This document shows, piece after piece, positions 9,778 to 61,838 of a stretch of DNA of 64,000 bases. The stretch is taken from assembly GCA_963748675.1 (NCBI GenBank), contig CAVVJX010000005.1, forward strand, positions 516,462 to 580,461, written 5' to 3'. The translations under genes and the position numbers were made by a program. The notes under the pieces are model-generated. The model saw nothing but the letters and a program-made list of their open reading frames with translations, was not told the origin of the DNA and searched no databases. Numbering within the stretch: the stretch's first letter is position 1; the number at the start of each line of letters is the position of its first letter. This DNA is from an uncultured Chloroflexia bacterium (lineage in GTDB: Bacteria; Chloroflexota; Limnocylindria; Limnocylindrales; CSP1-4).

Positions 9778-13429
<3,652 letters not shown>

Positions 13430-13548
13430 CGGCGCAACGGTTCGATACGCACCTGTCGCGTCTCGAACGATGCGCGCCGCGAAGGTGCGTGCCCGCACGG
13501 GGGTAGAATCCCTGCCCACACTGCCTGCCTGATCGGAGCCTGCCCGCC

Positions 13549-14262: not shown

Positions 14263-14328
14263 CCCGCGCCGGCCGGTCGGTACCGAGCGTCCGGCCGTGC
14301 CATCATCGGTGATCGAACGAGATCAGCG

Positions 14329-17100: not shown

Positions 17101-17664
17101 CGACGCCTCGGCGGATCGACGTGACGGTCAACGGCCGTGCCCGGTCGATCGAGGTCGCGGCGCACCACACGCTCCTCGAGGTGCTGCGTGACGACCTCGG
17201 GCTGACCGGGACGAAGGAGTGCTGCCTGGTCGGCGAGTGCGGGGCCTGCACGGTGCTGGTCGACGACGTCAGCGTCGATTCGTGCCTGGTCCTCGCGGCC
17301 GAGGTGGACGGCGCGAGCGTCACGACCGTCGAGGGCCTCGCGACCGGCGACGGGCTCCATCCGCTCCAGCAGGCGTTCCTGGACACGGGCGCCGTGCAGT
17401 GCGGGTTCTGCATCCCGGGCCAGCTGATCGCGGCGCAGGCGCTGCTCGCCAACACCCCGCACCCGTCGCGCTCCGAGATCGAGGAAGGGCTCGCCGGGAA
17501 CCTGTGCCGGTGTGCCGGGTACGAGCAGATCATCGAGGCCGTGGTTTTGGCGGCGGCGCGTCGACGCGGCCGGCGGCCAGGCAGTCCCGCGAGGCGCGGG
17601 CGCCTACGCGCCGGCGATGGGGGACCGAGCATCGACGCCGGACGCCGACGTCGCGCCGCAATGA
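17097..17664 (+). CDS. (2Fe-2S)-binding small subunit of the Mo hydroxylase (CoxS/XdhC-like); C-terminal frame uncertain
   Basis: ATG overlaps the preceding TGA. CCLVGECGACTV...CGFCIPGQ...CRCAGYEQI. In frame it reads into the large subunit through an Arg-rich stretch with no stop. A +1 frame ends CAATGA exactly on the large-subunit ATG. Confidence 0.65.
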
Positions 17665-39601: not shown

Positions 39602-39605
39602 TCGA

Positions 39606-43239: not shown

Positions 43240-43299
43240 CGGTCCCTCGATGGTAGTACGGGAGATGCCGGCGGATCCGGCACCTCCCGCTGCGTGGGT

Positions 43300-44508
43300 C
43301 TATGGCTCGGGGACGGCTACGCTCGCCCGGGCCCTTGCAGGCGACGGCCTGCTCGGGGGTGTACGTGGTCCAGCCCTCGATCTGGAGACCGAGCGGCCAG
43401 AGCGGGTCGAGACCGTCGACCTTCCACGACTCGAGCAGCGCCTTGCCCTCGTCGGTGACGTTGTCGGCGACGACCGGGTCCAGGAGGACCGTGTTCGCGC
43501 GCGCGGGCGCCGGTGCCGTCTCGATGGTCTCACCGTTGAGGAGCTTGAGCGCCAGGCCGACGCCGGCGCCGCCGACGGCGGCGGGTTGGTGACCGCGGCG
43601 CCCTTGAGCCCGGCGTAGTCGGTCGGGTTCGGCAGCTGGCCGACGAAGCGCGCCGAGGTCCGCGCCGACGATCGGCACGAACGGCTTGCTGTGCGGCCTT
43701 GATCGCGTCGACGACCTGCGAGTCCATGCCCGACGTCCAGATGCCCTGGACGTCGTCGTACCGCCGCTGGTGATGAAGTCGGTTGCGATCTGGGTGGCCT
43801 TCGCCGGGTCCCAGTCCGTGTGGACACCCTCGTCGCTCGGGACGAGCTTGATGCCCGGATACTCGGCCAGCGCCTGCTTGAAGCCGGTGTCGCGGTCGGT
43901 GTCGGCCGGGTGGCCGGCGATGCCGCGCATGTACGACGACGTTGCCCTTGCCGCCCAGCTGCTCGAACAGCCACTTGGCGCCGAGGTAGGCGTACTCGAC
44001 CTGGTTGTTGGACAGGTTGTAGGCGTCCGGGTCGGTGACGAACGCGTCGACCGCGACGGTCGTTGATGCCGGCGGCCTTGGCCTCGTCGAGCGCCGGGTT
44101 GAGGGCGTCGGGATCGTTCGGGTTGAAGACGATCGCGTCGACGTCCGCGGCGATCAGGTCGCGGATGTCCTGCAGCTGGCCGGCCGCGTCCGTGTTGCGG
44201 TGGATGATGGTGAGCTTGGAGACCTGGCCGGACGCGAGCGCCTCGGCCTTGGCCGTGCAGATCTGCTCCTCGCGGAAGCCGTTGCCGACGCCGCCACCGT
44301 TCGAGAACCCGATCGTGTAGCTGCCCGCCGCGCTGGCGGCCGCGTCAGACGGCGCGCCGGCGCTGGGGGCCGCCACGCTGGGGGCCGCCACGCTCGGGGC
44401 CGTGCTGGCCGCGGGCGTGGAGCACGCGCCGCGAACACCGCGACCGCTGCGAAGACCGCGAGCAATCTTGCCCGGGTCGATCCCTTCTCGATCATTCGTT
44501 CTCCTCCT
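43300..44508 (-). CDS. Lipoprotein sugar-binding protein of the ABC transporter; at least five frameshifts
   Basis: Excellent RBS GAGGAGGAGAACGA-ATG. MIEKGSTRARLLAVFAAVAVFAA-C-STPAASTAPS lipobox with a Pro/Ala/Ser linker, then a periplasmic-binding fold. The sequence is split among three frames. Confidence 0.6.
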   Translation of the reverse strand, partial: RRRTNDREGIDPGKIARGLRSGRGVRGACSTPAASTAPSVAAPSVAAPSAGAPSDAAASAAGSYTIGFSNGGGVGNGFREEQICTAKAEALASGQVSKLTIIHRNTDAAGQLQDIRDLIAADVDAIVFNPNDPDALNPALDEAKAAGINDRRGRRVRHRPGRLQPVQQPGRVRLPRRQVAVRAAGRQGQRRRTCAASPATRPTPTATPASSRRWPSIRASSSSRATRVSTRTGTRRRPPRSQPTSSPAAVRRRPGHLDVGHGLAGRRRDQGRTASRSCRSSARTSARFVGQLPNPTDYAGLKGAAVTNPPPSAAPASAWRSSSSTVRPSRRHRRPRARTRSSWTRSSPTTSPTRARRCSSRGRSTVSTRSGRSVSRSRAGPRTPPSRPSPARARASVAVPEP

Positions 44509-44585
44509 CGTTCGATCGGCGCGCCATGGTGGCCGCGCCGTAGGACGACGATCGCCCCCGCCCACGGGGGTCGTTGATCGCTCAT

Positions 44586-45430
44586 CAGCTCGGCTTCACC
44601 TCCTGGCGCGGGGCTCGCCTCGCCGTCATCCGTATCGCGGCTGATGGCACGGGCGATGCGCCGCGCGTGCTCCTCGATAGGCTCGTCGAACAGCGACCGC
44701 GAGCGCTCGGCGCCTACGACCGAGGCTCGGGTGATGACCGGTGGCATCGCGCCACGCTCCACGAGCAGCTGGGCGGTCCGCACCTTGATGGAGTTGACGA
44801 TGGCGACGGCGGTGATCGTCGAGCCCGGACCGACCGGGGTGTCGAGCCCGTCGATCGTCGACCAGGGCGTCGGCGTGCGGCGTGCACAGGTCGATGACGA
44901 GGTCGGCCTCGTCGAGCAGGCGGCTGCCGACCATCGGGATCCGGGTCGGCCGACATCGACTGCTCGACCGAGGTCACGGCGATGACCCGCAGGCCGCGCC
45001 GGCGCGCGCCGCGGGCCATCTCGACCGGCACCGCCGAGGTCCCCGCGGCCGAGAAGACGATCATCACGTCGTGCGGCCCGAAGGTGAAGTTCGACGAGGA
45101 TGACCTCGGCGAGGCCCGGCATCCGCTCGATGAACATCGCCTGGCGCTGGCCGTTGGCGCCGACGACCTGGGTGTGGAACGTCATCGACAGCTCGACGAT
45201 CGGGTTGAAGCCGGGGTACGAGCCGTAGCGCGGGAACATCTCCTCGACCGGGATCCGCGAGTGGCCGGTCCCGAACAGGTGGACGAGGCCGTCGCCGGCG
45301 ATCGCATCGGCGCACCACTGGCTGGCTTCTCGAGGGCGTCGCCCTGGGTCGTGGCGAGCCGATCGAGGAGCGCCCGTGCTTCGTCGAGGAACGGCGGAGC
45401 GCTCACCGACGTGACGGTCCTCGCGTTCAT
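44586..45430 (-). CDS. SIS-domain sugar-phosphate isomerase/deaminase-like protein; frameshifted
   Basis: FGTGHS..., PRYGSYPGFNPIVELSMTFH, MIVFSAAGTSAVPV (the SIS phosphosugar-binding fold) assembled from ORFs 45182..45430, 44714..45067 and 44154..45239. A TGATGA stop lies in the +1 frame at about 44583. Confidence 0.55.
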
Positions 45431-45455
45431 CGGGCGCCCACGACGACGAATCGCA

Positions 45456-46224
45456 TCAGTACCCGCCTTCGGTGCCGGCGCCGGCCGCGGCCGCGGCGCT
45501 GACCGGTGCCTGACCGGCCTTGCGCGCCCGGAAGTCGTCGATGATCGTGTTCGTCGCCGTCGCGCCGATGCGCGTCACGCCGAGCGCCATGACCTCGAGC
45601 AGCGCGTCGAGCGTCCGGACGCCGCCGGCGGCCTTGACCTGGATGTGGGGCGAGGTGTTCGCGCGCATCAGCCGCAGGTCGTCGTGGGTCGCGCCGCCCG
45701 GCGCGAAGCCGGTCGAGGTCTTCACGAAGTCGGCGCCGGCGGCCTCGGTCAGGCGGCAGGCGCGGATCTTCTCGTCGTCGGTCAGGTAGGCGTTCTCGAA
45801 GATGACCTTGACGATCGCGCCGGCCGCGTGGGCGACCTCGACGACCGCGGCGATGTCGGCCTCGACGTCGGCGTCGCGGCCGGACTTCAGGGCGCCGATC
45901 TGGATGACCATGTCGAGCTCGGTCGCGCCGTCGGCCAGCGCCTGCTGCGCCTCGAAGACCTTCGTCTCGGTCCGGTGGTTGCCGTGCGGGAAGCCGATCA
46001 TGGTCCCGACCGCCACGTCCGTGCCGTCGAGGATGGCCGCCGCGCGGAGCGACGTCGGCCGGCCGGACGCACACGCGACGCGACGTCGTACTCGGCCGCC
46101 AGCCGGCAGCCGTCCTCGACGAACGCGTCGTCGAGCTCGGGCCGCAGCAGCGAGTGGTCGATCGTCTTGGCGATGTCGCGTTCGGTCAGCGCGTCGAAGT
46201 CGATCGTCGACAAGTTCTCGCTCA
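45456..46224 (-). CDS. deoC: Deoxyribose-phosphate aldolase family (DeoC-like class I aldolase); one frameshift near 46050
   Basis: VCVRP-like N-terminus, VAVGTMIGFPHG, FVKTSTGF (Schiff-base Lys), KAAGGVRT. GTG start overlaps the upstream stop (GTGA). Confidence 0.75.
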
Positions 46225-47137
46225 CTTGATGTAGGGCCGCAGGACGTCGCGGGCGAGCAGGAAGCCGCGCTTGATCAGGTCGTCGGTCTTCTCGAAGTCG
46301 CGGTCCTCGTGCTCGATGATCACGTCGCCGTCGAAGCCGGCTCGCCACAGGGCCGCGAACAGCGGGCCCCAGTCGACGTCGCCGAGCCCGGGCAGGCGCG
46401 GGATCTGCCAGCCGATGCCCGAGCGCGAAGACGCCGCGCTCGTAGAGGCCGTCGCGGTCGATCATCAGGTCCTTGGCCTGCACGTGGAGGATGTGCGGCC
46501 CGAACTCGCGGATGAACCGCGGGATGTCGATCATCTGGAGGATCAGGTGCGACGGGTCGAAGTTGAGCCCGATCGTGCCGCCCCACTGCTCGAGGATCCG
46601 GCGCCAGATGCGCGGCGTCGTCGCGAGGTTGTGCCCGCCCGGCCACTCGTCGTCGCTGAACAGCATCGGGCAGTTCTCGATCGTGATCTGCCGGCCGTGG
46701 TCCTCCGCGAAGGCCACGATGTCCGGCCAGACCTGGAGCGCCTCCTCCCAGTTCTGCGTCCTGGGTCTTCGCGGCGTCGGCGCCCATGAACGTGTTGACG
46801 AACGGGACGTCCATCTTCTCGGCGGCCGTGATGACGTGCTTCAGGTGGCCGATGACGGTCTCGCGATGCGCCGGATCCGGATGGAGCGGGTTCGGGTAGT
46901 AGCCGAGCCCGGAGATCGCGAGGCCCTTGCCCCGGATCTCGCCGGCCAGCTCGGTCGCCTGCCGCGCCGACAGGTTCGCGACATCGATGTGGGAGGTGCC
47001 GGCGTAGCGGCGGGTCGGCCCGCTCGAGCGCGGCCAGCAGGCGATCTCGATGCTCTCGAAGCCGTTGGCGGCCGTCCAGTCGACGACGTCGGCGAGCGGC
47101 GTCTCGGGGAACGGCGCGGTCAGCAGACCGAGCCTCA
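46221..47137 (-). CDS. Sugar-phosphate isomerase/epimerase (xylose-isomerase-like TIM barrel); frameshifted twice
   Basis: MRLGLLTAPF...FESIEIA...ITIENCPM...FDPSHL...HVQAKD over three frames (46320..47408, 45998..46717). Confidence 0.7.
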
Positions 47138-48354
47138 TCGGGACGCCTGCGCGGTGACGGGCTGCGATCGCGGGACGCCCGATCGATCGACATCCACCCA
47201 GCGGCCTTCGCGCGCGCTCTCGGCGATCGCGTCGCCGACGAGCATCTCGTCGTGGCCGTCCGCGAACGTGGGATAGCCGGGGTGGGAGGAGGGCTCCCCG
47301 GCCACCACGTCCGCGTAGACGGCCCGGAAATGGGCACAGAACGTGTCGAAGAAGCCTTCGACGTGACCGTCCAGGCAGGGCGGCGGCCGCCTTGCCCGCC
47401 GCGCCCATGAGTGCAGGGTTTCGGATGAGGATCTCGTTCGGCCGGTCGCGGTGGCCGACCCACGCCTGGTCGGGCTGCTCGGAATCCCAGGCCCAGGCCC
47501 CGTCGGATCCGTCGATCTCGTAGATGGAGCGAGTTCTTCCGGCCCGCGCTGATCTGGCTGATGCTCACCGCGCCACGGGCGCCGCCGTCGAAGCGGAGCA
47601 GGATCGAGGCGGTGTCCTCGGTCGCGATCTCGCGCTCGACGGCGTCCGTCGAGCGGTCGGTCGAGAACGTCTCGACCGGGCCGGTCGGCTCGCGCCGCGT
47701 GCCGATGAAGGTCGACAGATCGGCCATGACGGCACTGACGTGCTGGCCGGTCACGAAGGTCATGAGGTCGAGCCAGTGCGACCCGATGTCGCCGACCGCC
47801 CGGAGCGCGCCGCCGCGGTCCGGCTGGAGGCGCCAGTTCCAGTCGCTCTCGAGCAGCAGCCAGTCCTGGAAGTAGCGTCCGGTCACGAGCCGGACGTCGC
47901 CGAGGCCGCCGTCCGCGATGAGCTCGCGAGCGTGCTGGTTGAGCGGGTAGTAGCGGATGTTGAAGTTCGTCGCGTTGACGAGGCCACTCGCCGCGGCGAG
48001 GTCGACGAGTTCCGCCGATTCCGCGGCCGACATCGCCAGCGGCTTCTCGCACACGACGTGCTTGCCGGCCGCGAGGATGTCGCGGCTCTGGCTGACGTGC
48101 AGGTCGTTCGGGGAGGTGACGTGGACGACGTCGACGGTGTCGTCCGACAGCAGGTCCTCAAGGGAGTCGTAGGCGCGTGGGACGCCGAGCGCGTCGACCC
48201 GCGCCTGGCCACGTTCCGGCGTGCTGCCGAGCACGCCGCGGACCTGCACGCCGATCCGCCGCAGTGCCTCCACGTGGACCGTGCCGATGAACCCCGTCCC
48301 GATGACGGCGGCGCCGATGTCGGCGATCGTTCTCACCGTTGCTGTCTCACCCAC
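47135..48354 (-). CDS. Gfo/Idh/MocA-family NAD(P)-dependent oxidoreductase; frameshifted
   Basis: AVIGTGFIGTVHVEAL Rossmann fold, EKPLAMS, and a C-terminal alpha/beta domain from ORF 47135..48052. Translationally coupled to the TIM-barrel gene. Confidence 0.75.
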
Positions 48355-48597
48355 TGGCTGGTGCGCACAAACGTCTAGACATTCTAGCGGACGCTCGCCG
48401 CGGACCGGATCTGGTCTGGTGTCGCGCGCTCAAGGGGCCCTCCGGGTTCTCCACCCACCCCTTGCCGACGCATCATCCTAGTTTGTCCTGTCAAGTGCAA
48501 AAGAGGCTCGGATTTCACTCCTGGCGAGGGGGGATCCGTTCGGAGCGCGAATGAACGGGGTTGGGTGCTTCTGCACACCATAGCAGTACTTTAGTTC

Positions 48598-48711: not shown

Positions 48712-49971
48712 ATGGTGCTCGACACGAAGCTCAGCCGGCGTCGATTGCTCCAAGCGGGCGCCGCCGGCGCCGCAGCGGCCGCGCTCTTACCTCTCGGTCC
48801 ATCGGGGGTCTTTGCGGCCGGCAAGGGCCGGCTCATCCCAGCAGGTAAAGTGGGGACGATCACCTTCACCCAGCGAGATGTGCCCGGCCGCATGGGCATC
48901 TCGACCGGCAACGCCACGATGGGGTTCCTCGGGGGCGCCAACTTCCCTGAGGATCCGACCGACCTCGGACCGCTCGTTCCGCTGCCGGGCGGCTGGAAGG
49001 AACTCTTCGAATACCTCGGCGGTGTCGGGTTCACGCAGATCGAGTTCGCGGGCTACACCCAGAACGGCGCGAACCCGGGTGGTGCTCAGCCCAGCCCGAC
49101 GACCAACCGCGCCGGCTATCTCGCCTACGCGTCCACCCTGCGCGGGTTCCTCGACGACAACGGTCTCGAGGCCATCGGCAACCACGGCTTCATCCCCAAT
49201 ACGTGGCCCGGACCGAGCAGCCCCGGCGGCGGGATGTCGACCGCCGATTACGACCGGTTCCAGACCGAGCTCGAATTCGCGTCCATCCTCGGCATGCCCT
49301 TCATGGGTACCGGCAACGACCCGACCAGCGCGAACATTCGCAGCGTCGCGTCGTGGACCATCGCGGGCGAGAAGTGGGAAGCGCTAAACACGCTCACCCT
49401 GGCCTGGGGCATCCACCTCTATCCGCACAACCACTCACCCGCCTACAACTTCCTCCAGGACGGTCCGCTCGTAACCGTCACCGAGCATCGCTTGACGGGC
49501 GCACCGATCGCCCCGACGCAGGTCCCTGCCGAATCCGGCAAGCGGTTGATGGAGTTTTACCTCGAGATCACCGATCCGGAGTCGTGCCTTATCGAGATGG
49601 ACATCTTCTGGGCGTACGTCGCCCAGCACCAGCACCGCTGGCGCTACGACGAGAACGGTGACCGGGTCGAGCACGTGTTCGATCCGCTGGCGCTCGTGGC
49701 GAGTCAGCCCAAGCGCTTCCCGTTGTATCACGCCAAGGACGGCGACAAGGTCGACGGCGCCCCGCTGACCGACAACGGTTACAACATGATCCCGTTTGGT
49801 GACCCCAGGAGTGATATCGACTTCGCGACCTTCTTCAAGGAGCAGGGCGCGAAGGGCTTCCACAATCCCAACTACGAGCAGGACAACGCTCCGGGCGGCG
49901 GTGCCGATCCTGGTCGGTCCCTGCGGTTCTCCCACATCAGCGCAGCGAACATGAACGCCCTTCGCGGGTAG
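48712..49971 (+). CDS. Tat-secreted xylose-isomerase-like TIM-barrel protein (sugar-phosphate isomerase/epimerase family)
   Basis: RBS GAAGGAGG. MVLDTKLSRRRLLQAGAAGAAAAALLPLG twin-arginine signal. No frameshifts. Codon usage is visibly less GC3-biased than in neighbouring genes. Confidence 0.75.
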   Translation: MVLDTKLSRRRLLQAGAAGAAAAALLPLGPSGVFAAGKGRLIPAGKVGTITFTQRDVPGRMGISTGNATMGFLGGANFPEDPTDLGPLVPLPGGWKELFEYLGGVGFTQIEFAGYTQNGANPGGAQPSPTTNRAGYLAYASTLRGFLDDNGLEAIGNHGFIPNTWPGPSSPGGGMSTADYDRFQTELEFASILGMPFMGTGNDPTSANIRSVASWTIAGEKWEALNTLTLAWGIHLYPHNHSPAYNFLQDGPLVTVTEHRLTGAPIAPTQVPAESGKRLMEFYLEITDPESCLIEMDIFWAYVAQHQHRWRYDENGDRVEHVFDPLALVASQPKRFPLYHAKDGDKVDGAPLTDNGYNMIPFGDPRSDIDFATFFKEQGAKGFHNPNYEQDNAPGGGADPGRSLRFSHISAANMNALRG

Positions 49972-50129: not shown

Positions 50130-53100
50130 TTGCGCAAGGCCATCACGTTGTTGGGCCTGCTGGCCCTCGTCGGCTCGCTCGCGGCGCCCTCGGTGGCGCT
50201 GTCGGCGCCAGCCGAGAAGTACCGGGTCTTCGTGTTCACGAACGGCGCCCCGGCCTATGCCCAGAAGGGCGTCAAGGCGATCAGGGATCTCGGCAAGGCC
50301 AACGGGTTCGGGGTCCAGTCGAACGGCGACGCCGGATTGTTCACCGAGGCCGACCTCGGCCGCTTCCGGGCGGTCGTCTTCCTCGATACCACCGGCAGTC
50401 CCCTGAATGCCGCCCAGGAGGCCGCCTTCGAGGCGTACTTCCGCAACGGCGGCGGGTTCGTCGGCGTCGGGTCGGCCGTGGAGACCGAGCCCGATTGGCA
50501 GTTCCTCACGGACATCCTCGGGACGCGCTCGGCGGGCAAGCTCGGCGCCCAGACGGTCACGAACAAGGTCGCAGACCGCGGGCACGACGCGAGCAAGAAC
50601 CTGCCCGAGTACTGGAACCTCAACGACACCTACTACAACTGGGCCTCGAATGTCCGCGGCCTGAGCCACGTGCTGACCACGGTCAGCGACGCCCCCTTCA
50701 ACCGCACCGGCGACGGACCGACGATCAATGCCCTGACCGGCGGCACCATGGGCGCCGATCACCCGGTCACCTGGTGCAAGGACTACCAGGGTGGTCGCTC
50801 GTACTACACGAACCACGGCGCCTCCTCCGCTGCGTGGAACGACGCAAACCTCGTCAAGGAGCTGCTCGGCGCGATCGAGTGGGCTGCCGGCGAGTCCGAT
50901 CCCGTGTACAGCGACTGCGGCGCGACGGTCCGCGCGAATTACCAGCAGTCGTTCGTTGCAGCACCGCCGAACCTGAGCGAACCGATCGGGTTCGACGTGC
51001 TCCCCGACGGCTCCGGCCGCGTGATCCAGACCGACCGTCGCGGTGGCGTCCGGCTGCACGACCCGGCCACGAACTCGACGACCCTCATCGCCCAGATCCC
51101 GGTCTATATCGCGAACGAGGACGGGATGTACGGGCCCGAGGTGGACAACGACTTCAACACGAACAAGTGGGTCTACCTGTTCTACTCGCCGCCGACCGTC
51201 GAGGACGTGAAGTTCGCGGACGGGACGCTCCATACCGTGACCACGCCGCTGAACGACCCGGCGACGCCGCAGAACGAGCAGAACGCGCCCAACATCGCGG
51301 GTGCGCTGAGCGCGTGGGATCCGTACGTCGGCTACTTCCAGCTCTCTCGCTTCAAGCTCGTCGATGCGAGCGGTGCCACGCCGGCCCACCTCGACGTGAC
51401 CAGCGAGCAGCAGATCCTGCGGGTCCCGAACAACCGCGGCGCGTGCTGCCACGTCGCGGGCGACATCGACTTCGATTCGCACAACAACCTGTGGCTGGTC
51501 ACCGGCGACGACACGCCGTCGGGCGGTGGCAACTCCGGTGGATTCTCGCCGTTCAACGGCCAGCTCACCAATGAGAGCCAGACAGTCGCCGTCGCCAACG
51601 CGACCGGCGGCACGTTCACGCTGACATTCGACGGCCGGACGACGCAGCCCATCGCGTTCCCGCTCGATAACGCGCAGATCGAGGCGGCTCTCGAAGGGCT
51701 GTCCAACCTCGACGACGTCGCGGTGACCGGGACCGGCACCCGGACGGTCAACTTCCGCGGCAACAAGGCCGAGCAGGACGTTCCGCTGATGACGGCGGAC
51801 GCCTCAGGGCTGACGGGTACCACGCCGACCGTCACCGTCGCGATGGCGACGGTCAATAACGGCCAGGGCACCAACATCCCCGCCGATGGCGGCCTGTTCA
51901 ACGCGCCGCACGTGGACGCTCGCCGGACCGCGCAGAACACCGGCCACCTGGGCGGCAAGCTGCTACGCATCACGGTCAAATCGGGCGACATCGGCGAGGC
52001 CGAGGAAAACGACCTCGGCGGCGCCTATACCGTCCCTGCCGGCAACCTGTTCCCCGCCGGTACGGCTCGCACCCGACCCGAGATCTATGCGATGGGCTTC
52101 CGCAACCCGTTCCGGCTCACGCTGGACAAGGACGACGTGGCCTACGTCAGCGACTATTCGCCCTGACTCGCAGGTGCCACAGCAGTTCCGCGGTCCGTCC
52201 GGGACCGGGCGGTTCGAGATCGTCCGCGCGCCCGCGAACTACGGCTGGCCGCTCTGCTACAAGACCGACCTCCCGTACTACAAGTGGGACTTCAACACCT
52301 CCACGCCGCTCCCCGTGGGTGCGCCGGAGCCGCACGACTGCGACGACCCCACCCGCGGGCCGCAGAACACCTCGCGCTGGGTGGCGAACGGTGGTCCGGC
52401 CGTCGACCCAGGTCTTGAGTACGGGCCACCGATCACGAATCCCGAGATCTGGTACTCGTATCGCGACAACCAGGCGGCTCCCAACGGACCGCAAGGGACC
52501 CAGTGCTTCGCGAGCTATGGGCCCGGCGCACCGGCCAACCCGGTCGGCGCGTGCCCGCAGCTGTTCCCGGAGCTCTTCACGGGCGGCGTCGGACCGCACG
52601 GCACCGCGCCGTACGACTTCGACCCGTCCAACCCGAATCCCACGAAGTTCCCGCCGTACTGGGACGGGGCCTGGATCGCCGGCGAGTTCACCCAGGACAC
52701 GCTGCGCGAGGTCCGCATGGACTCGAACGACGAGGTCCACAAGATCAACAACACGCTGCCGTGCGGCCCGGTGCCAGCGACCCCGACGCGGCCGTGGCTC
52801 TGCGACAACCCCATGGACATGGAATTCGGGCCTGACGGCACGTTCTACCTGCTCACCTACGGTGATGGCTTCTTCGCCATCAACCCGGACGCCGGGATGA
52901 TGCGCTGGGAGTACGTCAAGGGACTCCGCGCGCCGGTCGCCGTGATCTCAGCCACGCCGACCGATGGTCCGGCGCCGCTGACCGTGGCCTTCTCGAGCGC
53001 CGGCTCGAATGACGCCGACCCCGGCGATTCGATCCGCTTCGAGTGGGACTTCGACGGCAACGGCACGGTCGACTCGATCGAGCCGAACCCGACCCACACG

Positions 53101-53940
53101 TACACGACGACCGGGCAGTTCACGGCCAAGCTATCCGTGATCGATTCGAGCGGCAAGGTCGGGTCGGCGAACACTACGATCACGGTCGGCAACACGGCGC
53201 CGGTGGTGACCATCAACGCGCCGGTCGAAGGCGGGACGTTCGTCTTTGGCGAGGACATCCCGTTCACGGTGACGGTCACCGACCCGGAGGACGGTGCGAT
53301 CGACTGCGCCGACGTCCAGGTGACCTTCGTCCTCGGCCATGACACGCACGGCCACGCCGAAGCGTCGACCTCCGGCTGCTCCGGCGTCCTGCCGACCGAC
53401 CCGGAGGGCGTGTCGCACGGCGGCAACGTGTTCGGCGTCATCAGCGCGTCGTACACCGACGGCGGGGGCGCCGGCGGTGTTCCGACCCTGACCACCGTCG
53501 CCCAGAACCAGATCCGCCAGAAGCGTCAGGAAGTGGAGTTCGTCGTCAACCAGTCCGGCACGAATGTTGCCGGCTCCACCGACGTCGGCGGTGGCTCCCA
53601 GCGTGGCGGCCTCAGCGCCGGCGACTGGCTCCAGCTCAACGGGCCGTTCAACCTGCTCAACATCGACTCGATCACGTTCCGTACGTCCGGCGGCAACAAC
53701 GGGGTCGCCAGTGGCGCGGTCGAGATCCATCGCGACACGGTCGATGGACCGATCGTGAGCACCGTGACCATCGTCGGTACCGCCAGCGGTGGGACCTACG
53801 CCAGCCAACCGTTCCCGATCGCAGACAGCGGGACCCACGAGTACTTCCTGGTCTTCCGCGCCGTCCCGACCGGACCCGGCAACAACTTCTTCAACCTCAA
53901 CTGGATCGAATTCGGAGGACCGGGGGTCTCGATCCCCTGA
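50130..53940 (+). CDS. Secreted multidomain protein: ThuA-like domain, glucose/sorbosone-dehydrogenase-like (PQQ-type) beta-propeller, PKD domain and a C-terminal carbohydrate-binding (CBM6/35-like) domain; one frameshift near 52160
   Basis: TTG start with GGAGG, and a Sec signal. YRVFVFTNGAPAY...FLDTTG (ThuA). RGACCHVAGDIDFD...EIYAMGFRNPFR (GSDH propeller). PLTVAFSSAGSNDADPGDSIRFEWDFDGNG (PKD). The NLNWIEF C-terminus (CBM). ORFs 50130..52166 and 51886..53940 are joined by a CCC versus CC indel. Confidence 0.75.
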
Positions 53941-53990: not shown

Positions 53991-54734
53991 TCACGTCAGC
54001 CGGCGGATCCGGACGTTCCGGAACCACACCTCCTCGCCGTGATGCTGGAGGACCACGCCGCCGGCGTCGGCCGCCATGAAGCCCGGCAGGTCGCGGAACT
54101 TGCTGGCGTCGACCAGGGTTCGCACGTCGGCGCCGCCCCACTCGTAGTCGACCACACGGCTGCCGTTGAGCCAATGCTCGACCTGTCCCCCGTGGACCAC
54201 GATCCGCCCCGTGTTGAACGTCCCGACCGCCTCCAGGCGCTTGTCCGCATTCGGAGCGATCAGCCCGTAGAGCGCCGCTGCCGAAGTCCGCGGATCGCGG
54301 CCGTCCGGGTGTCCGCTGTCGTCGAGCACCTGGTATTCGGGACCGGTCGTCCACGAGGGCGCGTCACTCTCGACGACACGGTAGAGGACGCCGCTGTTGC
54401 CGCCCGGGCTCACGCGCCAGTCGAATTCGAGCTCGAAATCGTCGAAGGTTTCGCGCGTGACGAGGTCGACGCCGGCACCGGGCAGGGCATGGAGCTCCGC
54501 GTCCTCGACGACCCAGCTGGTCGGGAAGGCGTCCGACCCGTAGCCGCGCAGCGCCGCAGTGGACGTGCCGTCGAACAAGGCGATCCAGGGACCTTCCACG
54601 GGCGTGACCTCCGGCGTTGTGGCGATGGGTGCGGGGGAGCCGATCGGGCCGACACACGCGGCCGCCGCGAGCACCGTCGCGAGCATCGCGGCGCCCGCCA
54701 TCCGAAGCGCATCGGGCCTCGCCGACTCCTTCAT
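53991..54734 (-). CDS. DUF1080-family lipoprotein (LamG-like jellyroll; family members reported as 3-keto-disaccharide hydrolases)
   Basis: MKESARPDALRMAGAAMLATVLAAAAC lipoprotein signal. WxVEDGEL-type motifs (WVVEDAELHALPG, GNSGVLYRV, FRNVRIR) typical of DUF1080. Confidence 0.75.
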   Translation of the reverse strand: MKESARPDALRMAGAAMLATVLAAAACVGPIGSPAPIATTPEVTPVEGPWIALFDGTSTAALRGYGSDAFPTSWVVEDAELHALPGAGVDLVTRETFDDFELEFDWRVSPGGNSGVLYRVVESDAPSWTTGPEYQVLDDSGHPDGRDPRTSAAALYGLIAPNADKRLEAVGTFNTGRIVVHGGQVEHWLNGSRVVDYEWGGADVRTLVDASKFRDLPGFMAADAGGVVLQHHGEEVWFRNVRIRRLT

Positions 54735-54803
54735 CCGGCCATGGTCCCCCAATCGCCCGATCCCGTCCGTTCGGGAGCCGACGCCCGGGCGCTATCATCG
54801 CGT

Positions 54804-56121
54804 GGTGACTGAGGGGCCGACGGAGTTGGTACGTGCGCCGGTCGTTGGGCCGCATCAGCCACTTCCCGACGAGGTCCTCGACGCCCTCGTCACCGTGCTC
54901 GACGAGGTCCGCCTCGGGCGGTCGCGCTCCCGGTCCGAGCTCGTGACGAGGACCGGCCTCGGCCGGGCGATCGTGGCGCGACGGGTCCAGGAGCTGATCG
55001 ATCGCGGCCTGCTGAGCGAAGGCGAGGTCGGCCCGAGCACGGGCGGCCGACCGCCGCGACACCTCGCCTTCTGTGCGGACGCCGGGCACGTCCTGGTCGC
55101 GGACCTCGGTGCGACGAGCATCGACGTGGCCGTCACGAGCCTGGATGGCCGGATCCTTGGCCACCACGACGAGCCCGCCCGGATCGAGGACGGCCCAGAG
55201 CGGGCGCTCGAGCGCGTGGACGCCCTGTTCGAGTCCTTGCTGCGCACGACGCAGGACATCCCCGGCCGGCTATGGGGCATCGGCATCGGTGTCCCGGGGC
55301 CTGTGGAGTTCGACTCGGGGCGGCCGATCTCGCCGCCGATCATGCCGGGCTGGGACGGCTACCCGATCCGGGAACGCTTCACCCAGCGCTATCAGGCGCC
55401 GGTCTGGGTCGACAACGACGTCAACCTGCTGGCGCTCGGAGAGTGGCGATCCGGCGTCGCGTCGGGTCACGACAACGTCGTCGTCGTCAAGATCGGGACC
55501 GGGATCGGCGCCGGCATCATCTCCGATGGCCGCCTGCATCGAGGGGCTCAGGGCAGCGCCGGCGACGTGGGCCACATCCAGGTCACGGACGACCCGGCGG
55601 TCGTGTGCCGATGCGGTAATACCGGGTGCCTGGAAGCGCTCGCCGGCGGCGCCGCGCTCGGGCGCGCAGGCGAGGCCGCCGCACTCGACGGTCGGAGCCC
55701 CAGGCTGCAGGCGGCCCTCGACCTGCACGGCAGCCTGTCGGCTGAGGATGTCGCTCGGGCGGCCTCATTCGGTGACCCGGTCGCCGTGGCGCAGCTGCAG
55801 GCCGCCGGTCGGTTGGTCGGCTCGATGCTGGCGGGCATCGTGAACTTCTTCAATCCGTCGCTGATCGTCATCGGTGGCGGCGTCGCCAACAGTCCGGACC
55901 AGCTCATGGCCGCGATCCGCGGGACGATCTATCGACGGTCCCTGCCCCTCGCGACGCGAGACCTGTCGATCCAGCGCTCCTCGCTCGGTGCGCTGGCCGG
56001 TGTGATCGGCGCCTCCTCGATGGTCGTCGACCAGTTGTTCGCCCGGGGTGCCCTCGCCCGCTGGATCGAGGCCGGTGACCCGGCGTCGACGCCGGACCTG
56101 CCCCTCGCGCGCGCCGGCTAG
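54804..56121 (+). CDS. ROK-family transcriptional repressor (N-terminal HTH plus sugar-kinase-like domain)
   Basis: [31 protein letters not shown], then the ROK fold with [11 protein letters not shown]. Confidence 0.75.
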
Positions 56122-56124
56122 CCC

Positions 56125-57221
56125 ATGGGAGTCGCACAAACCCGCGTCGGGTTCATCGGCGCGGGGATCATGGCCCGCCATCACCTCGGGGAGATCCTCG
56201 ACGGGGCTTCCGACACGGAGGTCGTCGCCATCTGCGAGCCGTCGGCGGTCGCCTACGCGGCGGCGGCCCAGCTGTTCGACCAGCACGGCCTGCCGGTTCC
56301 GCCGAACGAGCCCGACTGGACCAGGTTCGTCGAGAGGTACTCCGGCCAGCTCGACGCCGCGTTCATCATCACCCCGCACGTCCTGCATTTCGCCCAGGCG
56401 ACGGCCTGCCTCGAGGCGGGCTTCGACGTCCTGCTCGAGAAGCCGATGGTCATGACCGCCAGCGAGGCGACGGCGCTCATCGACGACGCGCGACCGGACC
56501 GGGCGACTGCTCGTCGTCGCGTTCCAGGGCAGCCTCTCGCCCCAGGTCCGGGAGGCGGCCCGGATGCTGCGCTCGGGCGAGCTCGGGCCGATCCTCAACA
56601 TCAGCGCGGTCGTCTGGCAGGACTGGGCGACCCTGACCGAGGGCACCTGGCGCCAGCAGCCCGAGCTGTCCGGCGGCGGGTTCCTCTTCGATACCGGTGC
56701 CCACATGCTCAACACGGTGTCCGACCTCGCCGGTGAGGACTTCGCCGACGTGGCCGCATGGCTGGAAGACGACGGCCGGCCCGGTCGACATCCGGGCCGC
56801 CGTGATGGGCCGGCTCGTGTCTGGGGCCCTCGTCACGATGAACGCCGTTGGCAGCGCCATCCCGTCCTGCCATTCGGACATCCGCGTGTTCACGTCTAGG
56901 GCGATCCTCCGAACCGGGATCTGGGGCGAGCGACTCGAGTTGCAGCGAGCCGGGTCGGCGCGCCTGCGACGGGTCAGCTCCGTGGCCCCGATGCAGATCT
57001 GGGACCAGTTCCTCAACGTTCGGGCGGGGCGCACCGTCAACCCGAGCCCGCCCGAAGTCGGGCTGCGGATGGCGCGCCTCTGGGACGCGATCCGCGAATC
57101 GACCGAGCACGGCGGCGCCGTCATCTCCCTGCCGCGCACGGTGCCTGAGGCGCCCGAGGCGCCCGCGGAACCGGCCGGACCGGCCGGACCGAACCTCGCC
57201 GAGGCCGTCCGTCCAGTGACC
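56125..57221 (+). CDS. Gfo/Idh/MocA-family oxidoreductase; frameshifted at least twice
   Basis: [14 protein letters not shown] Rossmann fold, EKPM. The C-terminal parts are in ORFs 56564..56899 and 56697..57437. A +1-frame TGA overlaps the GTG of the next gene. Confidence 0.65.
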
Positions 57222-57933
57222 CGCGTGACCGTCTGGAACGAGTATCGCCAGGAGCGCTCCGATCCCGCCGTCGGAACGATCTACCCCGACGGCATCCACG
57301 GCGCGATCGGCGACGGTCTGCGCGCAGCCGGCTTCGACGTGCGCGACGGCGACGCTCGACGAACCGGAGCATGGACTCACCGACGAGGTCCTCGCCGCAA
57401 CCGACGTGTTGACCTGGTGGGGCCACGTCGCGCATGACGAGGTCACCGACGCCGTCGTCGACCGCGTGCATCGCCGCGTCCTCGACGGGATGGGCCTGAT
57501 CGTCCTGCACTCGGGCCACTTCTCGAGGATCTTCAAGCGGCTCATGGGCACCAGTTGCGATCTCACCTGGCGCGAAGCCGGCGAGCGGGAGCGCGTCTGG
57601 GTCGTGGATCGATCGCACCCGATCGCCGACGGGCTCGGCGAGTCATTCGTGATCGAAGCGGAGGAGATGTACGGCGAGCCGTTCGATATCCCGGCTCCCG
57701 ACCGGCTCGTCCTCGTCGGCTGGTTCCAGGGCGGCGAGGTCTTCCGGAGCGGCTGCTGCTACCAGCGCGGTCGTGGCCGGATCTTCTACTTCCAGCCCGG
57801 CCACGAGACCCATCCGACGTATTTCCACCCCGACGTTCGAACGGTGATCGCGAATGCGGCACGCTGGGCGACCCAGCCCGTGGGCGCAGCACCCGTCTAT
57901 GGGAATCGCAAGTCGCCGCCCGAGCCGCTGTGA
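57217..57933 (+). CDS. ThuA-family protein (trehalose-utilisation-type, class I glutamine-amidotransferase-like); frameshift near 57360
   Basis: [14 protein letters not shown]...[13 protein letters not shown]...IVLHSGHFS...[14 protein letters not shown]. Confidence 0.7.
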
Positions 57934-57946
57934 TGGGTCGCTGCGG

Positions 57947-58291
57947 TCAGGATCGCTGAGGGCGCTTCGCGACGAACGCCTCCGACTCCGTCGCGAGGCC
58001 CAGCCAGGCCTCGTCGGACGCCGGCTCCGCAACCGACAGCCATTCCTTCATGAGCCGGCCGTCGCCGGGATCGAAACGCTCGCCGTCACCCGCTTCGACC
58101 AGCTCGTCGACGCGGCGCCGGTCGAGCTTCACGACCAGCCGATCCTTCACGAGCATCGCGAAGATCTTGCCGTTGGTCTTGAGCGACGTCGAGCCGAACG
58201 CCTGCTGGGGGCCCGACTCGTTGCCGTAGGTCGCGGCACCTTCACTGAGGACCGTCGCGACCAACGCCGCCCATCGTTCGTCCGCGGTCAT
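57947..58291 (-). CDS. YjbR/MmcQ-family small protein (114 aa)
   Basis: [18 protein letters not shown]...GKIFAMLVKDRLVVKL resembles the YjbR-family core. Stop is adjacent to the upstream Gfo gene. Confidence 0.5.
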   Translation of the reverse strand: MTADERWAALVATVLSEGAATYGNESGPQQAFGSTSLKTNGKIFAMLVKDRLVVKLDRRRVDELVEAGDGERFDPGDGRLMKEWLSVAEPASDEAWLGLATESEAFVAKRPQRS

Positions 58292-59490
58292 TACGCGCCC
58301 GCCACGACGCGGTCCGTGAAGTCGCCCGAGGCCTCGTCCTTGAGGATCAGCTTGTGGCGCCCGTCCGGCAGGATCTCGCGCTTGATCACGACCAGCCCGT
58401 CGTACGTCTCCGGCGTGGACGCGATGCGCGCCGTCGAACCGCCCCGCCAGTCCAGCTCGACCCCCTCCCACTGGCCGGTCTTCGCCGACCGGTAGCAGGC
58501 GTCCATGATCGCGTTGACGACGTAGCCGTCGTAGAACGTCTCCTGCGGTGCGCCGCCGGTATCGATCGCACGGAACATGTCGCTGAACATGTCCACGTAG
58601 CCAAGCTCCGAGACCTCGTCGCCGACGGGGAACAGCCACCCCGCCGATGTCTCCGCCTTCTCCGCGACGTATCCGCCACCGCCCCCGGCCGTGAACATCT
58701 CGAACCCCGTCCGCAGGAAGTGGTTCAACCAGATGGTGCCGTGGGTACCGGCCACCTCGTCGCGCAGGTCCATGCCGCCGCGGAACGTCCAGCTGACCTC
58801 GAACTGGCCGATCGCTCCGGACTCGAAGCGGATCAGGGCGATCGCGTTGTCCTCGTCGGCGATGGGATGGACGAGCGTGTCGGTGTGGCACATGACGTCG
58901 ACCGGCCGGTTCCCCTTGCCGACGAAGTTGCGCACGATCTCGATGCAGTGGCAGCCGAGGTCGATGATCGCCCCGCCCCCGGTCAGCCGCCCGTCCCAGA
59001 ACCACGCGGAATGCGGCCCGGGATGCGTTTCACGCGACCGGACCCAGGTGACGTCGCCGAGCGCCCCGTCCTGCACGGCCTTGATCGCCTTGAGCGTCTT
59101 GGGCGTGTAGCACAGGTCCTCGAGGTACCCACCGAACACCCCGGCCGACTCGACGACATCGAGCATCCGCTTCGCCTCCTCGGCCGTCCGCCCAAGGGGC
59201 TTCGTACAGAGGACGGCCTTGCCCGCCTTCGCCGCCAGCCCGACGGCCTCCTCGTGGAGGAAGTTGGGCAGCGCCACGACCACGACGTCCGTGTCGGGAT
59301 GGTTCACCGCGGCCGCCAGGTCGGCCGTGGACTCGGGGATCGACCAGCGCTCGCGAAACGCCGACCCGCGCCCCTCACTGCGGGAGTACACGACCTGGAC
59401 CTGGTCACGACCGCGCTGGCCGTGCAGCGTCATCGTGTAGAAGTCGGCGATGAGCCCGGTCCCGAGCATCGAGATGCGATGGCCGTCCAT
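58291..59490 (-). CDS. Gfo/Idh/MocA-family oxidoreductase (400 aa, intact)
   Basis: [24 protein letters not shown] Rossmann fold...CTKPLGRT...long C-terminal domain. No frameshift. Confidence 0.8.
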
Positions 59491-59513
59491 GTGGTCCTCC
59501 TCCAGGTGAGCGG

Positions 59514-60489
59514 TCAGGTGGGGCGCGACGGCGCGGCCGCGAACGTGAACGCGCGCGCCGGATTGGTCACGAACAGTCGATGGCGGACCGACTCGTCCAC
59601 CCCGGCGTCCGCCAGGAGCCGGGTGAAGCCGTCGAGCAACCAGACGAGGCCAGGTCCACCGCCGTGGACCTTGTAGTAGCGACGTCGGGCGGCGTCCATC
59701 CCGAGGACGATCCGCTCGCCGTGCCCGTCCTCGACCATCCAGCGGATGAGCTGGAGGGTCCCGTTCGGCTCGTCGTCCTTCCATCGGAACGAGCCGTCGT
59801 ACTCGCCGTAGGCTCCGGACCCCAGCAGCTCGCGGTGATAGCCCCGATCGACGACCTTGTCGACGTGGCTCAGCACGATGTGCCGCGGCTGCGACGCCGT
59901 GGTCGCGCAAGGTCCGGATCTGCTCGAGGGCACCGGCGCCGTGCTCGCAGTGGGTGAGGATCGGGACGCCCGTTCGGCGATGGGCCTCGGCGGCGGCCTC
60001 GAACACGCGCCGGTCGCGGGCTGACAGGCCGCCCTCGGATCCCGCGACCTTGACGACCCCGGCACGGAACGTGGTCCGGCGCACGACCGGTCCCGCGTAG
60101 TCGTACGCATCGATGCCGTCGGTGACGTCGGCGGTGAACAGGTCCGCGAGCTCCTCGATCGAGACCCGGTGGCTCCAGTGTGCCGGGCCGTAGTAGCGGT
60201 CGTGATGCAGCCCGGTGGGCGCGACGACCTGGACGCCGGTTCGCTTCGAGAGGTCCGCCAGCTTGGCGACGTTGCGGCCCGCATCGCACGGCATGGCATC
60301 GACCACGGAGCGCAGCCCGAGAGCGGCCGCCTCGGCCAGCTCGGTCGCCATCGCGTCGACGTCCCCGAGATCGAATTCTGGCTCCAGCTCGACCGGCCGT
60401 CCGCCATCGATGACGAGGTGCTCGTGAGCGTACGTCACGCCGAGTTCTTCGGGCGCGATGTCCCCGAGCACGGTCCGGACGAAGGTCAT
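59514..60489 (-). CDS. Phosphotriesterase-family (PTE/PHP, amidohydrolase superfamily) protein; likely a lactonase or esterase; frameshift near 59950
   Basis: [12 protein letters not shown] (binuclear-metal HxH), HCEHG, and the C-terminus from ORF 59514..60407. ATGA overlap with the upstream FAD oxidoreductase. Confidence 0.7.
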
Positions 60490-61838
60490 CGCGCGACCGC
60501 CTCGGGCGCATCGGCGACCTCGAGGATCGCGCCATCGGCGCGCAGTCGATCGCGTAATGCGCTCACGTCGAGGTCGCGCGGATCGCGCCCGCCGGCCGCG
60601 GACATGGCCGCCGCCGTCCCCGCCGCCTGGCCCATCGCCATGCATTGCGCCATCGAGCGGACCGATGCGTGCGCGTCGTGCGTGGCGCTGAAGCAGCGGC
60701 CGGCGACGAGCACGTTGGTCGCGTCCCGCACCACCAACGACCGATACGGGATCCCGACCGCCCCGCCGTCGGGCAGGTACTGCCAGACCGTGTCCGCGCC
60801 GCCGTGATGGTCCTCGATCGGCGCACCGCACAGGCCGATCGCGTCGTCGAAGGCGCGCGCGCCAAGCACGTCGTCCCGGGTCAGCCGGTAGTCGCCATAG
60901 ACCCGGCGGGTCTCACGAACCCCGATCTGCGTGCCGAGCGCGACCAGCGACGCGTGTTCGTAGCCGGGCACGCGATCGACGAGGAACCGGACGTATTCGA
61001 GCGCCTGGCGCCGGCCGGCGATCTCGGCCTCGGTCAGGAACCAGGGATCCGTGGCGTTGATGAGGTTGCCGTCGGCGTCGCGCCGGACCGAATCGAGTCT
61101 CGTCATGATCGTGGCCGTCACGCCGTCGATCGGCGTGATGTGGTCACTGCCCTCGCGCCGGGGCAGGTCGTAGTCGCCCGAGTCCGCGGCCTCGGCCATC
61201 AGCCGGTGGAAATCGGTCTTGGAGATCGCGCGCCGCCGCTCGAGGTCGACGTTGGCCATGCGGAAGGTCGTCGTCAGCGTCTGGGCCGGGTCGATGTCAC
61301 CCGCCGTCTCGTAGCCGAATCCCGCGAAGGCGCACAGGTCCGCGTCGCCCGACGCATCCACGAAGGTTCTCGCGCGCACGCGCGCGAGACCGGCCCGCGT
61401 CGCGACGACGATCGTCTCGACGCGTCCATCGCGGACCTCGGCCGCCTGGACGAGCGCATGGAGGAGCGGCCGAGCGCCGGATCCGGTCACGAGCCGCTCC
61501 CACACGACCTTGAGGTGCTCCGCGAGGTAGGTCACGCCGGTCCCGGCGCCGTAGGTGTTGGGCCGTTCCACGACGGGGCCGAGTTCCCGCAGGCCCGCCA
61601 CGACGTCGTCGCCGATGCCACCGACCACCTTGCGCGCGGACGATCCCGGCGTGTAGAAGCCGTAGAACGTGTCGAGGACCGCGGTGCTCGTGCCGCCGAG
61701 GAACGGCAGCCGATCGATCAGCAGGACCGACGCTCCGCCTCGGGCTGCGGCGATGGCCGCGGTCGATCCGGCGGAGCCCGATCCGACGATGCACACGTCG
61801 ACGTCGGCGATCGTGGGTGCCGTTGCCTTGAACGTCAT
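60486..61838 (-). CDS. FAD-dependent oxidoreductase (FAD_oxidored / GlcNAc-locus-type family, 450 aa)
   Basis: [22 protein letters not shown] (GxGxxG) and an intact ORF. ATGA coupling on both sides. Confidence 0.75.

Follow-up and report, generated by a model that had tools for sequence, protein, structure and literature searches.

Glycosides can be cleaved by a broad-specificity, non-Koshland route in which a C3 oxidant acts first and is followed by 3-keto-glycoside 1,2-lyases and a glycal hydratase, activities assigned to TIM-barrel and DUF1080 proteins of the kinds described below (Nasseri et al., bioRxiv 10.1101/2024.03.25.586180). The DUF1080 family had been tied earlier to 3-keto-disaccharides (PMC8121099, PMC9007349). 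A second described system is a β-xylosidase purified from the culture supernatant of Cellulosimicrobium cellulans F16, which takes xylose off 7-xylosyl-10-deacetylpaclitaxel (Dou et al. 2015, PMC4562250). Its active subunit was a "hypothetical protein" with the Pfam domains ThuA, GSDH, PKD, CBM_6 and PKD, and the authors, who could not name the catalytic domain, proposed a glycoside hydrolase (GH) family that would be new (PMC4562250). Here we analyse a gene with the same core of domains at positions 50130-53940 of a 64,000-nucleotide stretch of DNA, hereafter the window, from an uncultured Chloroflexia bacterium (GenBank assembly GCA_963748675.1, contig CAVVJX010000005.1, positions 516,462 to 580,461). 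The gene encodes a secreted protein of ~1269 amino acids (aa) and is interrupted by a single T that is most likely artefactual. We think it probable, with considerable room for doubt, that this protein is the quinoprotein oxidant of an extracellular system that cleaves glycosides by oxidation and elimination.

The initial annotation of the window had described 50130-53940 as one protein of about 1270 aa. The coding region and the named domains are where it had put them, but the gene is not a single open reading frame (ORF). Instead, two long plus-strand ORFs in different frames occupy this region of a window whose G+C content is ~70%. ORF1 (50130..52166, 678 aa) begins at a TTG codon that is preceded at 11 nt by a GGAGG, and runs as far as a TGA; the remaining protein is encoded in the +1 frame up to 53940. 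The end of ORF1 reads ...DDVAYVSDYSP followed by the stop, and the second frame goes on as DSQVPQQFRGPSGTGRFEIVRAPANYGWP; joined, the two form one unbroken conserved motif of sugar-dehydrogenase propellers, and the sequence ...DYSPDSQ... is uninterrupted in all homologues examined. A DNA alignment with the gene for P0001, an intact metagenomic homologue on locus L001 with 91% protein identity, locates one extra T at 52164 (TCGCCC[T]GACTCG), which gives rise to the TGA (52164-52166) and puts the remainder of the gene in the +1 frame. When this T is removed, the result is a 1269-aa protein without further stops that is 91% identical to P0001. A misjoined pair of genes, which the initial annotation had named as the alternative, was rejected because the homologues read through and the DNA alignment shows one extra base. 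Thus, 50130-53940 is one gene with a 1-nt insertion: a 5′ part (50130..52163, +; residues 1-678) encodes the signal peptide, ThuA and the first propeller blades, including a subfamily-specific insert, and a 3′ part (52165..53940, +; residues 679-1269 and the stop) encodes the rest of the propeller and the PKD, Ig-like and CBM6 domains. A scan for promoters and terminators found nothing exceeding chance.

The domain architecture was determined by running Pfam on the repaired 1269-aa protein and by comparing the AlphaFold model of a homologue, P0051 (1176 aa; 66% identical to the window protein), with known structures using Foldseek. The P0051 model has a predicted local distance difference test score (pLDDT) of 80 and a predicted template-modelling score (pTM) of 0.72. 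The order of domains, all on the plus strand, is a Sec signal, ThuA, a six-bladed propeller of the pyrroloquinoline quinone (PQQ) sugar-dehydrogenase type, PKD, an Ig-like domain and a family 6 carbohydrate-binding module (CBM6). The predicted Sec-type signal peptide (50130..50207; residues 1-26) reads MRKAITLLGLLALVGSLAAPSVALSA followed by PAEK, with cleavage after ALSA; it was assigned by inspection and is conserved in P0001. The ThuA domain (50223..50885; residues 32-252) scores 157.7 bits against a cut-off of 33.4 (E 6e-46) and covers positions 1-209 of the 209 in the PF06283 profile. By sequence it matches PDB entry 4jqs, and the P0051 model matches 4jqs, 4pxy and 4e5v (E 1e-13 to 1e-10; Foldseek TM-score, TMt, 0.64-0.78), in keeping with a ThuA-like fold of the flavodoxin/GATase1 type. 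The propeller (50937..52926; residues ~270-932) spans the frameshift and is followed by the PKD domain found by Pfam (52930..53187; residues 934-1019). The Ig-like domain (53200..53535; residues 1024-1135) resembles Big_7, which Pfam places at residues 1024-1069, and the C-terminal CBM6 (53548..53913; residues 1140-1261) scores 49.9 bits as CBM_6 against a cut-off of 28.9. CBM6 entries in the PDB are matched by sequence as well as by the β-sandwich of the model (TMt 0.80-0.86 to 2v4v, 1w9s, 1uxx and 1gmm). The domain order, secretion signal, PQQ-type propeller and binding module that the initial annotation had proposed therefore all hold, on the strength of Pfam, the fold matches and inspection of the signal.

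The identity of the propeller is supported at the level of profile, fold and motif. Pfam GSDH (PF07995) matches in two stretches with 67.1 bits against a cut-off of 25 (E 2e-18). The propeller of the P0051 model matches the structures 3a9g, 1c9u and 2ism (E 1e-17 to 1e-14; TMt 0.60-0.80), 3a9g with the lowest E value (1e-17; TMt 0.77) and 2ism with a TMt of 0.80, and a profile built from the propeller only finds 3a9g (E 6e-7), 2ism, 3das and 2g8s by sequence. In the profile alignment, GACCHVAGDIDFD..NLW.VTGD lies opposite GAYIHNGGRIRFGPDGMLYITTGD of 3a9g, GFRNPFR opposite GHRNPQG, and GP..NYGWP opposite its counterpart. Three motifs, CCH(V)xGD...TGD, GFRNPFR and GP...NYGWP, are invariant in the family and align with 3a9g, 2ism and 2g8s; among their residues, H441, R658-N659, G688-P689 and N703-P707 are invariant or nearly so in the same alignment. 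H441 belongs to an invariant Cys439-Cys440-His441 (51444..51452, +), and aligns with the HxGG...GD motif of 3a9g, at the position that we take to be the catalytic-base histidine (His144) of soluble glucose dehydrogenase (sGDH). The functional roles of H441, of the Arg-Asn pair in GxRNP and of GP...NYGWP are likewise putative and taken from sGDH. The central region is thus a sugar-dehydrogenase propeller, as had been proposed, by Pfam GSDH, by fold and by motif alignment, and by analogy with its structural relatives it would use PQQ.

Some features go beyond the textbook enzyme. First, all 12 cysteines are invariant, including the adjacent C439-C440 directly before the putative catalytic His441. 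This pattern suggests that the 12 cysteines form six disulfides, and C439-C440 is possibly a vicinal disulfide. A vicinal disulfide beside PQQ is typical of methanol and alcohol dehydrogenases, which have eight blades, and is not known as a hallmark of sGDH-type enzymes. Second, an insert of ~107 aa (51570..51890, +; residues ~481-587; GGTFTLTFDG...AALE.L.N...V.VTG) follows a Gly-rich loop after the catalytic blade; it is present in the subfamily of 1250-1320 aa and missing from the Streptomyces-type proteins of 1170-1180 aa. Pfam gave no informative match for this insert or for the His-rich Ig-like domain, and an NCBIfam search of the repaired protein returned zero matches. The Ig-like domain carries an invariant HDxHGH motif (H1070-D-x-H-G-H1075; window ~53338-53355) and a C1059/C1083 pair, and HDxHGH may be a metal site. 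The motif is kept in the Cellulosimicrobium homologue at 38% identity (as LGHDNHGH), and model confidence is low at this loop. Some homologues bear the JGI name 'cytochrome c', which is not borne out here, as the protein has no CxxCH motif.

The invariance of the active-site motifs across hundreds of sequences also bears on whether the protein could be without catalytic activity and serve to bind glycans or as a scaffold, its propeller being free of PQQ like that of HHIP. One of the fold matches is indeed HHIP (7pgn), several of the domains are of the binding or Ig type, and the Cellulosimicrobium homologue sat in a large multiprotein complex. However, a scaffold would be hard to reconcile both with this conservation and with the enzymatic activity of the isolated Cellulosimicrobium subunit, and we consider such a role highly improbable.

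The window protein is a member of a large, well-populated and already annotated family that is mainly actinobacterial. A word-indexed search gave 627 matches; nearly all of the best 120 are full-length proteins (1170-1320 aa) that share one Pfam set with the window protein, and NCBI names such proteins "ThuA domain-containing protein" in Streptomyces, Micromonospora, Nocardioides, Microbispora and other genera. Species-representative genomes contain at least 573 loci, almost all in Actinomycetota with a few in Chloroflexota-type metagenome-assembled genomes (MAGs), and the best match among these genomes is 78%. An exhaustive HMMER scan at E ≤ 1e-30 yielded 2548 clusters of 50% identity. The architecture, which NCBI had already named and which is shared by full-length homologues in the hundreds, is therefore less novel than the initial annotation supposed. 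Our literature searches found no mechanistic role for ThuA; a 2024 PNAS paper gives 'dehydrogenation' to a ThuA-domain protein by annotation only.

The genes around the fusion gene link it to lyase-type modules. Directly upstream lies a gene for a xylose-isomerase-like TIM barrel (48712..49971, +; 419 aa counted from MVLDTKLSRRRLL) with a twin-arginine translocation (Tat) signal, SRRRLLQAG. Downstream, convergent with the fusion gene, is a gene for a DUF1080 / 3keto-disac_hyd protein (53991..54734, −; Pfam E 8e-43) with a lipobox-like LAAAAC. Both neighbours are as first described, a Tat-secreted TIM barrel and a DUF1080 lipoprotein. A ROK-family regulator or kinase follows (54559..56121, +, taken as the longest ORF, with a probable true start near 54600-54860), and the contig of P0001 has the same gene layout as the window. 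In a survey of 81 loci, a TIM-barrel homologue lies within 400 nt of the fusion gene on the same strand in 45, and a ROK gene lies within ~3 kb in ~35. Homologues of the TIM barrel often carry PF01261 and are named sugar phosphate isomerase/epimerase. By sequence, its sole solved relatives are 3obe, 3l23 and the 3-keto-β-glucopyranoside 1,2-lyases of Alistipes and Bacteroides; by fold (model pLDDT 63), 3obe and 3l23 are again the best matches, followed by the AL1 and BT1 lyases (8tcr, 8tcd, 8tct) and then by AtOGE, AtHYD and a C-glycoside deglycosidase.

The strongest evidence for this linkage comes from relatives in which the ThuA-GSDH-PKD-CBM6 core is fused with other modules in one polypeptide. 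An AP_endonuc_2 TIM barrel is fused to the core in Georgenia P0252, and this domain occurs in 14 of the 120 listed relatives; DUF1080 is fused to it in Saccharomonospora P0477 and others (31 of 120). In ~26 of the 120, an N-terminal cupredoxin of the plastocyanin/azurin type stands directly before ThuA (residues 19-121 in P0437), which suggests a built-in electron acceptor. The extracytoplasmic branch of a keto-sugar pathway that the initial annotation had envisaged thereby gains support from conserved gene order, from domain fusions in relatives and from the fold of the partner protein. It is from this linkage that we infer that the quinoprotein would be a C3 oxidant making a 3-keto-glycoside.

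These partners also help to weigh a related reading, in which the protein would be an AA12-like PQQ pyranose dehydrogenase that feeds electrons to lytic polysaccharide monooxygenases (LPMOs) or other redox enzymes and does not initiate glycoside cleavage. Such an enzyme would have the same six-bladed PQQ fold, the pairing of a carbohydrate-binding module with a quinoprotein is found in the fungal enzyme CcPDH, which is described as driving LPMOs (PMC5960967), and the cupredoxin fusions in relatives show that electrons are passed on. We nevertheless regard this reading as unlikely, since the conserved partners are lyase-type TIM barrels, DUF1080 proteins and ROK regulators rather than LPMOs, and the native homologue releases aglycones from glycosides.

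That homologue, the Cellulosimicrobium enzyme, provides the available biochemistry, and the initial annotation was mistaken in taking this combination of domains to be biochemically uncharacterised. The native F16 protein cleaved pNP-β-Xyl and pNP-β-Glc (p-nitrophenyl β-xyloside and β-glucoside), a fluorogenic substrate called MUX and the bulky taxane xyloside, and a form of ~118 kDa that extends from ThuA to PKD, with ~500 C-terminal residues gone, was still active on all four (PMC4562250). The truncated form had a kcat of 0.061 per second, as against 13.2 per second for the intact multiprotein complex (PMC4562250). In sequence databases, P0514 ('M768_06600', 1663 aa, strain F16) has its ThuA-to-CBM6 domains in the same order, with two ConA-like domains after them, and is likely the M768_06655 of the paper despite the differing locus tags. 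Its 90%-identity cluster representative, P0416, is collinear with P0001, the 91% relative of the window protein, at 38% identity (E 2e-124).

In line with the proposal of Dou et al., the protein could be an ordinary hydrolytic glycosidase that represents a new GH family, the propeller or ThuA hydrolysing its substrate without redox chemistry. The reported assays of the activity had neither cofactor nor electron acceptor added, metals did not activate the isolated subunit, and β-propellers can host glycoside hydrolases, as in GH43-type folds. We find hydrolysis quite improbable, because the invariant residues are those of a quinoprotein active site, the best fold matches are PQQ dehydrogenases while TM-scores to GH43 reach just 0.25, and a simple hydrolase would offer little reason for the linkage to keto-sugar lyase modules and cupredoxins. 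Oxidation followed by elimination, in contrast, would explain why the isolated Cellulosimicrobium subunit is slow, why xylosides and glucosides with a bulky aglycone are both accepted, and why no known GH fold is present.

We propose the following sequence of events, which follows the published oxidation–elimination–hydration scheme. The CBM6 and the Ig-like and PKD domains would keep the enzyme attached to its substrate, a glycan or glycoside. Having taken up PQQ and Ca2+ outside the cell, the propeller would oxidise a sugar hydroxyl, probably that at C3, to a keto group, with electrons leaving via an external acceptor, or via the fused cupredoxin in some relatives. The co-transcribed, Tat-exported TIM barrel would then act as the lyase and eliminate the aglycone or the remaining glycan; in this genome the neighbouring DUF1080 lipoprotein may serve as an additional lyase or hydratase, and the resulting glycal would be hydrated. 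The ThuA domain would form part of the conserved catalytic core.

Several observations weigh against this proposal. The C-terminal half of the propeller has a pLDDT of 55-75 in the P0051 model, and its blades give a faint profile match. The TIM-barrel model is mediocre, and the sequence similarity of this protein to the lyases is weak (E 0.003-0.04). No TIM-barrel partner was detectable at the Solirubrobacter and Streptosporangiaceae loci of the 81-locus survey, and DUF1080 matches were found in just 15 of the 81 loci, mostly distant and weak, so that the DUF1080 adjacency on which the initial annotation had drawn is present in the window but is not conserved across the family. No pqq genes occur within the 64-kb window, a result that has little bearing on the rest of the genome. 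Finally, the 2015 activity is that of a native-host protein identified by mass spectrometry rather than a recombinant one, so that a co-purifying conventional glycosidase is possible, and no electron acceptor was reported as needed (PMC4562250).

At some of the surveyed loci the surroundings of the fusion gene differ. In Streptomyces sp. NBC_00316 (CP108024.1, 9001-13937), the fusion gene and the TIM-barrel gene stand alone between transposase genes (rve_3 and DDE_3), a two-gene cassette that hints at a mobile module. In Microbispora rosea (13125-15062 of the locus), a 645-aa protein with FIMAH and ThuA domains comes after the fusion gene in place of the TIM barrel, and it is this protein that accounts for the 5.6-kb tblastn spans at the Streptosporangiaceae loci.

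Further from the fusion gene, the window encodes a Gfo/Idh/MocA protein, another TIM barrel, a DeoC aldolase, a sugar ATP-binding cassette (ABC) transporter, more Gfo/Idh/MocA proteins, an FAD oxidoreductase and an apparent small ThuB/ThuA-like pair. This apparent classical cytoplasmic pair, at 56125-57933 (+) just downstream of the ROK gene, consists of a ThuB-like Gfo/Idh/MocA fragment and a small ThuA. BLASTP finds no similarity (E 2.8) between this small ThuA, whose gene lies 3.5 kb downstream, and the ThuA domain of the fusion protein, and therefore, to judge by their sequences, two different ThuA subfamilies are present in the window. The analogy to ThuAB drawn in the initial annotation consequently applies at the level of the Pfam family and does not extend to similarity with the canonical small ThuA encoded nearby.

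The origin of the T at 52164 can be judged from the rest of the window, in which CTP synthase and at least nine other genes are also frameshifted. Frame breaks were counted where a Pfam domain is split or where alignment with an intact orthologue from locus L030 is broken. A codon-usage Viterbi frame caller changed frame even within an intact 1229-aa ORF and was not used for the counts. A single 1229-aa ORF at 16227-19916 (+) is of the xanthine-dehydrogenase/CO-dehydrogenase type, with FAD_binding_5, two [2Fe-2S] domains and molybdopterin-binding domains; it unites all three subunits usual for such enzymes, arranged as FAD, FeS, Mo. The CTP synthase gene (pyrG, 11524-13532, +) is spread over three frames (11524..12558, 12555..13532 and 12892..13506), with CTP_synth_N 1-231 in one ORF, GATase 2-111 in the second and GATase 115-181 in the third. 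CTP synthase is normally essential, and its gene split over three frames is therefore the clearest sign of indel errors in the assembly. At least eight further frame breaks fall at 39600-48400 and 56100-60500, in the sugar-catabolic island. Single Pfam domains of the ABC ATPase, permease and sugar-binding protein are divided between overlapping ORFs at 40-44.6 kb, and a TIM barrel is also among the affected genes. Compared with the intact syntenic L030, the Gfo/Idh/MocA oxidoreductase gene (47180..48357, −), broken into three reading frames, has two breaks, the ATPase gene one and a phosphotriesterase-family (PTE) gene one. Both members of the ThuB/ThuA-like pair look broken, the small ThuA gene (57406-57933) encoding a truncated domain and the adjacent Gfo/Idh/MocA gene (from 56125) an N-terminal fragment only. 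An S9 peptidase gene outside the sugar island is split too. Because CTP synthase and at least nine other genes of the window share this defect, an assembly or sequencing error is in our view the most likely origin of the T at 52164.

A real frameshift would instead make this copy of the fusion gene a pseudogene in a decaying sugar-catabolic island. The stretch from 40 to 60 kb contains at least nine frame breaks, ten genes tested at 27-40 kb have near-full Pfam coverage, and the inserted T is outside any homopolymer run. The sequence context around the frame breaks has no clear homopolymer signature, and breaks look denser at 40-60 kb than at 27-40 kb, an unevenness that leaves real decay some probability. 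On the other hand, the S9 peptidase and CTP synthase genes are broken although both lie outside the island, and the fusion gene retains, one base aside, 91% identity and every invariant residue without further stops. Moreover, the fusion gene shows multi-frame breakage of the same type in related MAG loci (L020, L036 and L080) and is a single open frame in others (L001, L002 and L030); from the record names, we read the former as long-read and the latter as short-read assemblies. On this evidence, decay is an improbable alternative to an assembly or sequencing error. We also considered programmed +1 ribosomal frameshifting of the RF2 type at CCC_UGA_C, where a weak stop context comes after a slippery proline codon. 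This candidate was rejected as effectively refuted: the extra base is absent from the closest homologue and from all others, so that the shift site is not conserved even in the closest relative, no Shine-Dalgarno-like stimulator precedes it (GACTATTCG), and the window has many other frame breaks. The apparent stop codon should therefore not be interpreted biologically, and the fusion gene is best treated as an ordinary member of its family.

More broadly, it is possible, and we suggest it tentatively, that non-Koshland glycoside cleavage has a third class of oxidant, the PQQ-based ThuA–quinoprotein fusions, in addition to NAD-bound Gfo/Idh/MocA enzymes and flavoenzymes. This class would operate outside the cell on polymer-bound or bulky glycosides, with ThuA and the vicinal disulfide taking part in the chemistry or in electron transfer, and would account for the orphan 'new GH family' activity of 2015. 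If so, a secreted quinoprotein system that detaches sugars through oxidation and elimination, not by hydrolysis, is widespread among soil Actinomycetota. Oxidation–elimination systems tolerate unusual linkages and bulky aglycones, such as that of the taxane xyloside cleaved by the Cellulosimicrobium enzyme, and a system of this kind would be relevant to biomass turnover, to the breakdown of natural-product glycosides and to biocatalysis. It would also provide the first functional context for the ThuA domain, which is without a known role even within classical ThuAB, and explain an enzyme activity that has been an orphan for ten years.

The window protein can be compared with four known systems. 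With the ThuA of ThuAB in rhizobia and Agrobacterium it has in common PF06283 and a link to 3-keto-sugar formation. However, canonical ThuA is a small cytoplasmic partner of the Gfo/Idh/MocA protein ThuB, whereas the ThuA of the window lies behind a signal peptide and is fused to a quinoprotein, and the protein is thus not of the ThuAB type; its ThuA domain instead resembles the ThuA-like Bacteroides structures 4jqs and 4e5v, whose function is unknown. With the soluble PQQ sugar dehydrogenases (sGDH 1c9u, Pyrobaculum 3a9g, Thermus 2ism, E. coli Asd/YliI 2g8s; CAZy AA12) it shares the fold and the catalytic-His, GxRNP Arg-Asn and GP...NYGWP motifs at an identity of just 13-17% in structural alignments. 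Unlike in these enzymes, the propeller of the window family is nearly twice as long, with large inserts, has an invariant Cys-Cys directly before the catalytic His, and is always fused to ThuA and binding modules.

The characterised relative is the C. cellulans F16 protein, in which, as judged through P0416, the CCH, GFRNPFR, NYGWP and LGHDxHGH motifs are conserved as in the window protein. Without its C-terminal 500 residues, that is, as the active form of ~118 kDa, it corresponds approximately in extent to the window architecture; the full-length protein differs in having an extra PKD and two C-terminal ConA-like (DUF1349 / GH43_C2) domains and in lacking the propeller insert. Finally, the oxidation–elimination–hydration systems of Bacteroides and Alistipes (BT/AL1-3) and of A. 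tumefaciens (AtOGE/AtHYD) employ lyase-type TIM barrels and DUF1080 proteins like those adjacent or fused to members of the window family, and their broad glycoside specificity recurs in the family's characterised homologue. The known oxidants of these systems are Gfo/Idh/MocA proteins with bound NAD, and that of A. tumefaciens is a flavin enzyme. Here, by contrast, the candidate oxidant would be a ThuA-fused quinoprotein, secreted by a Gram-positive-type cell and anchored by its carbohydrate-binding module.

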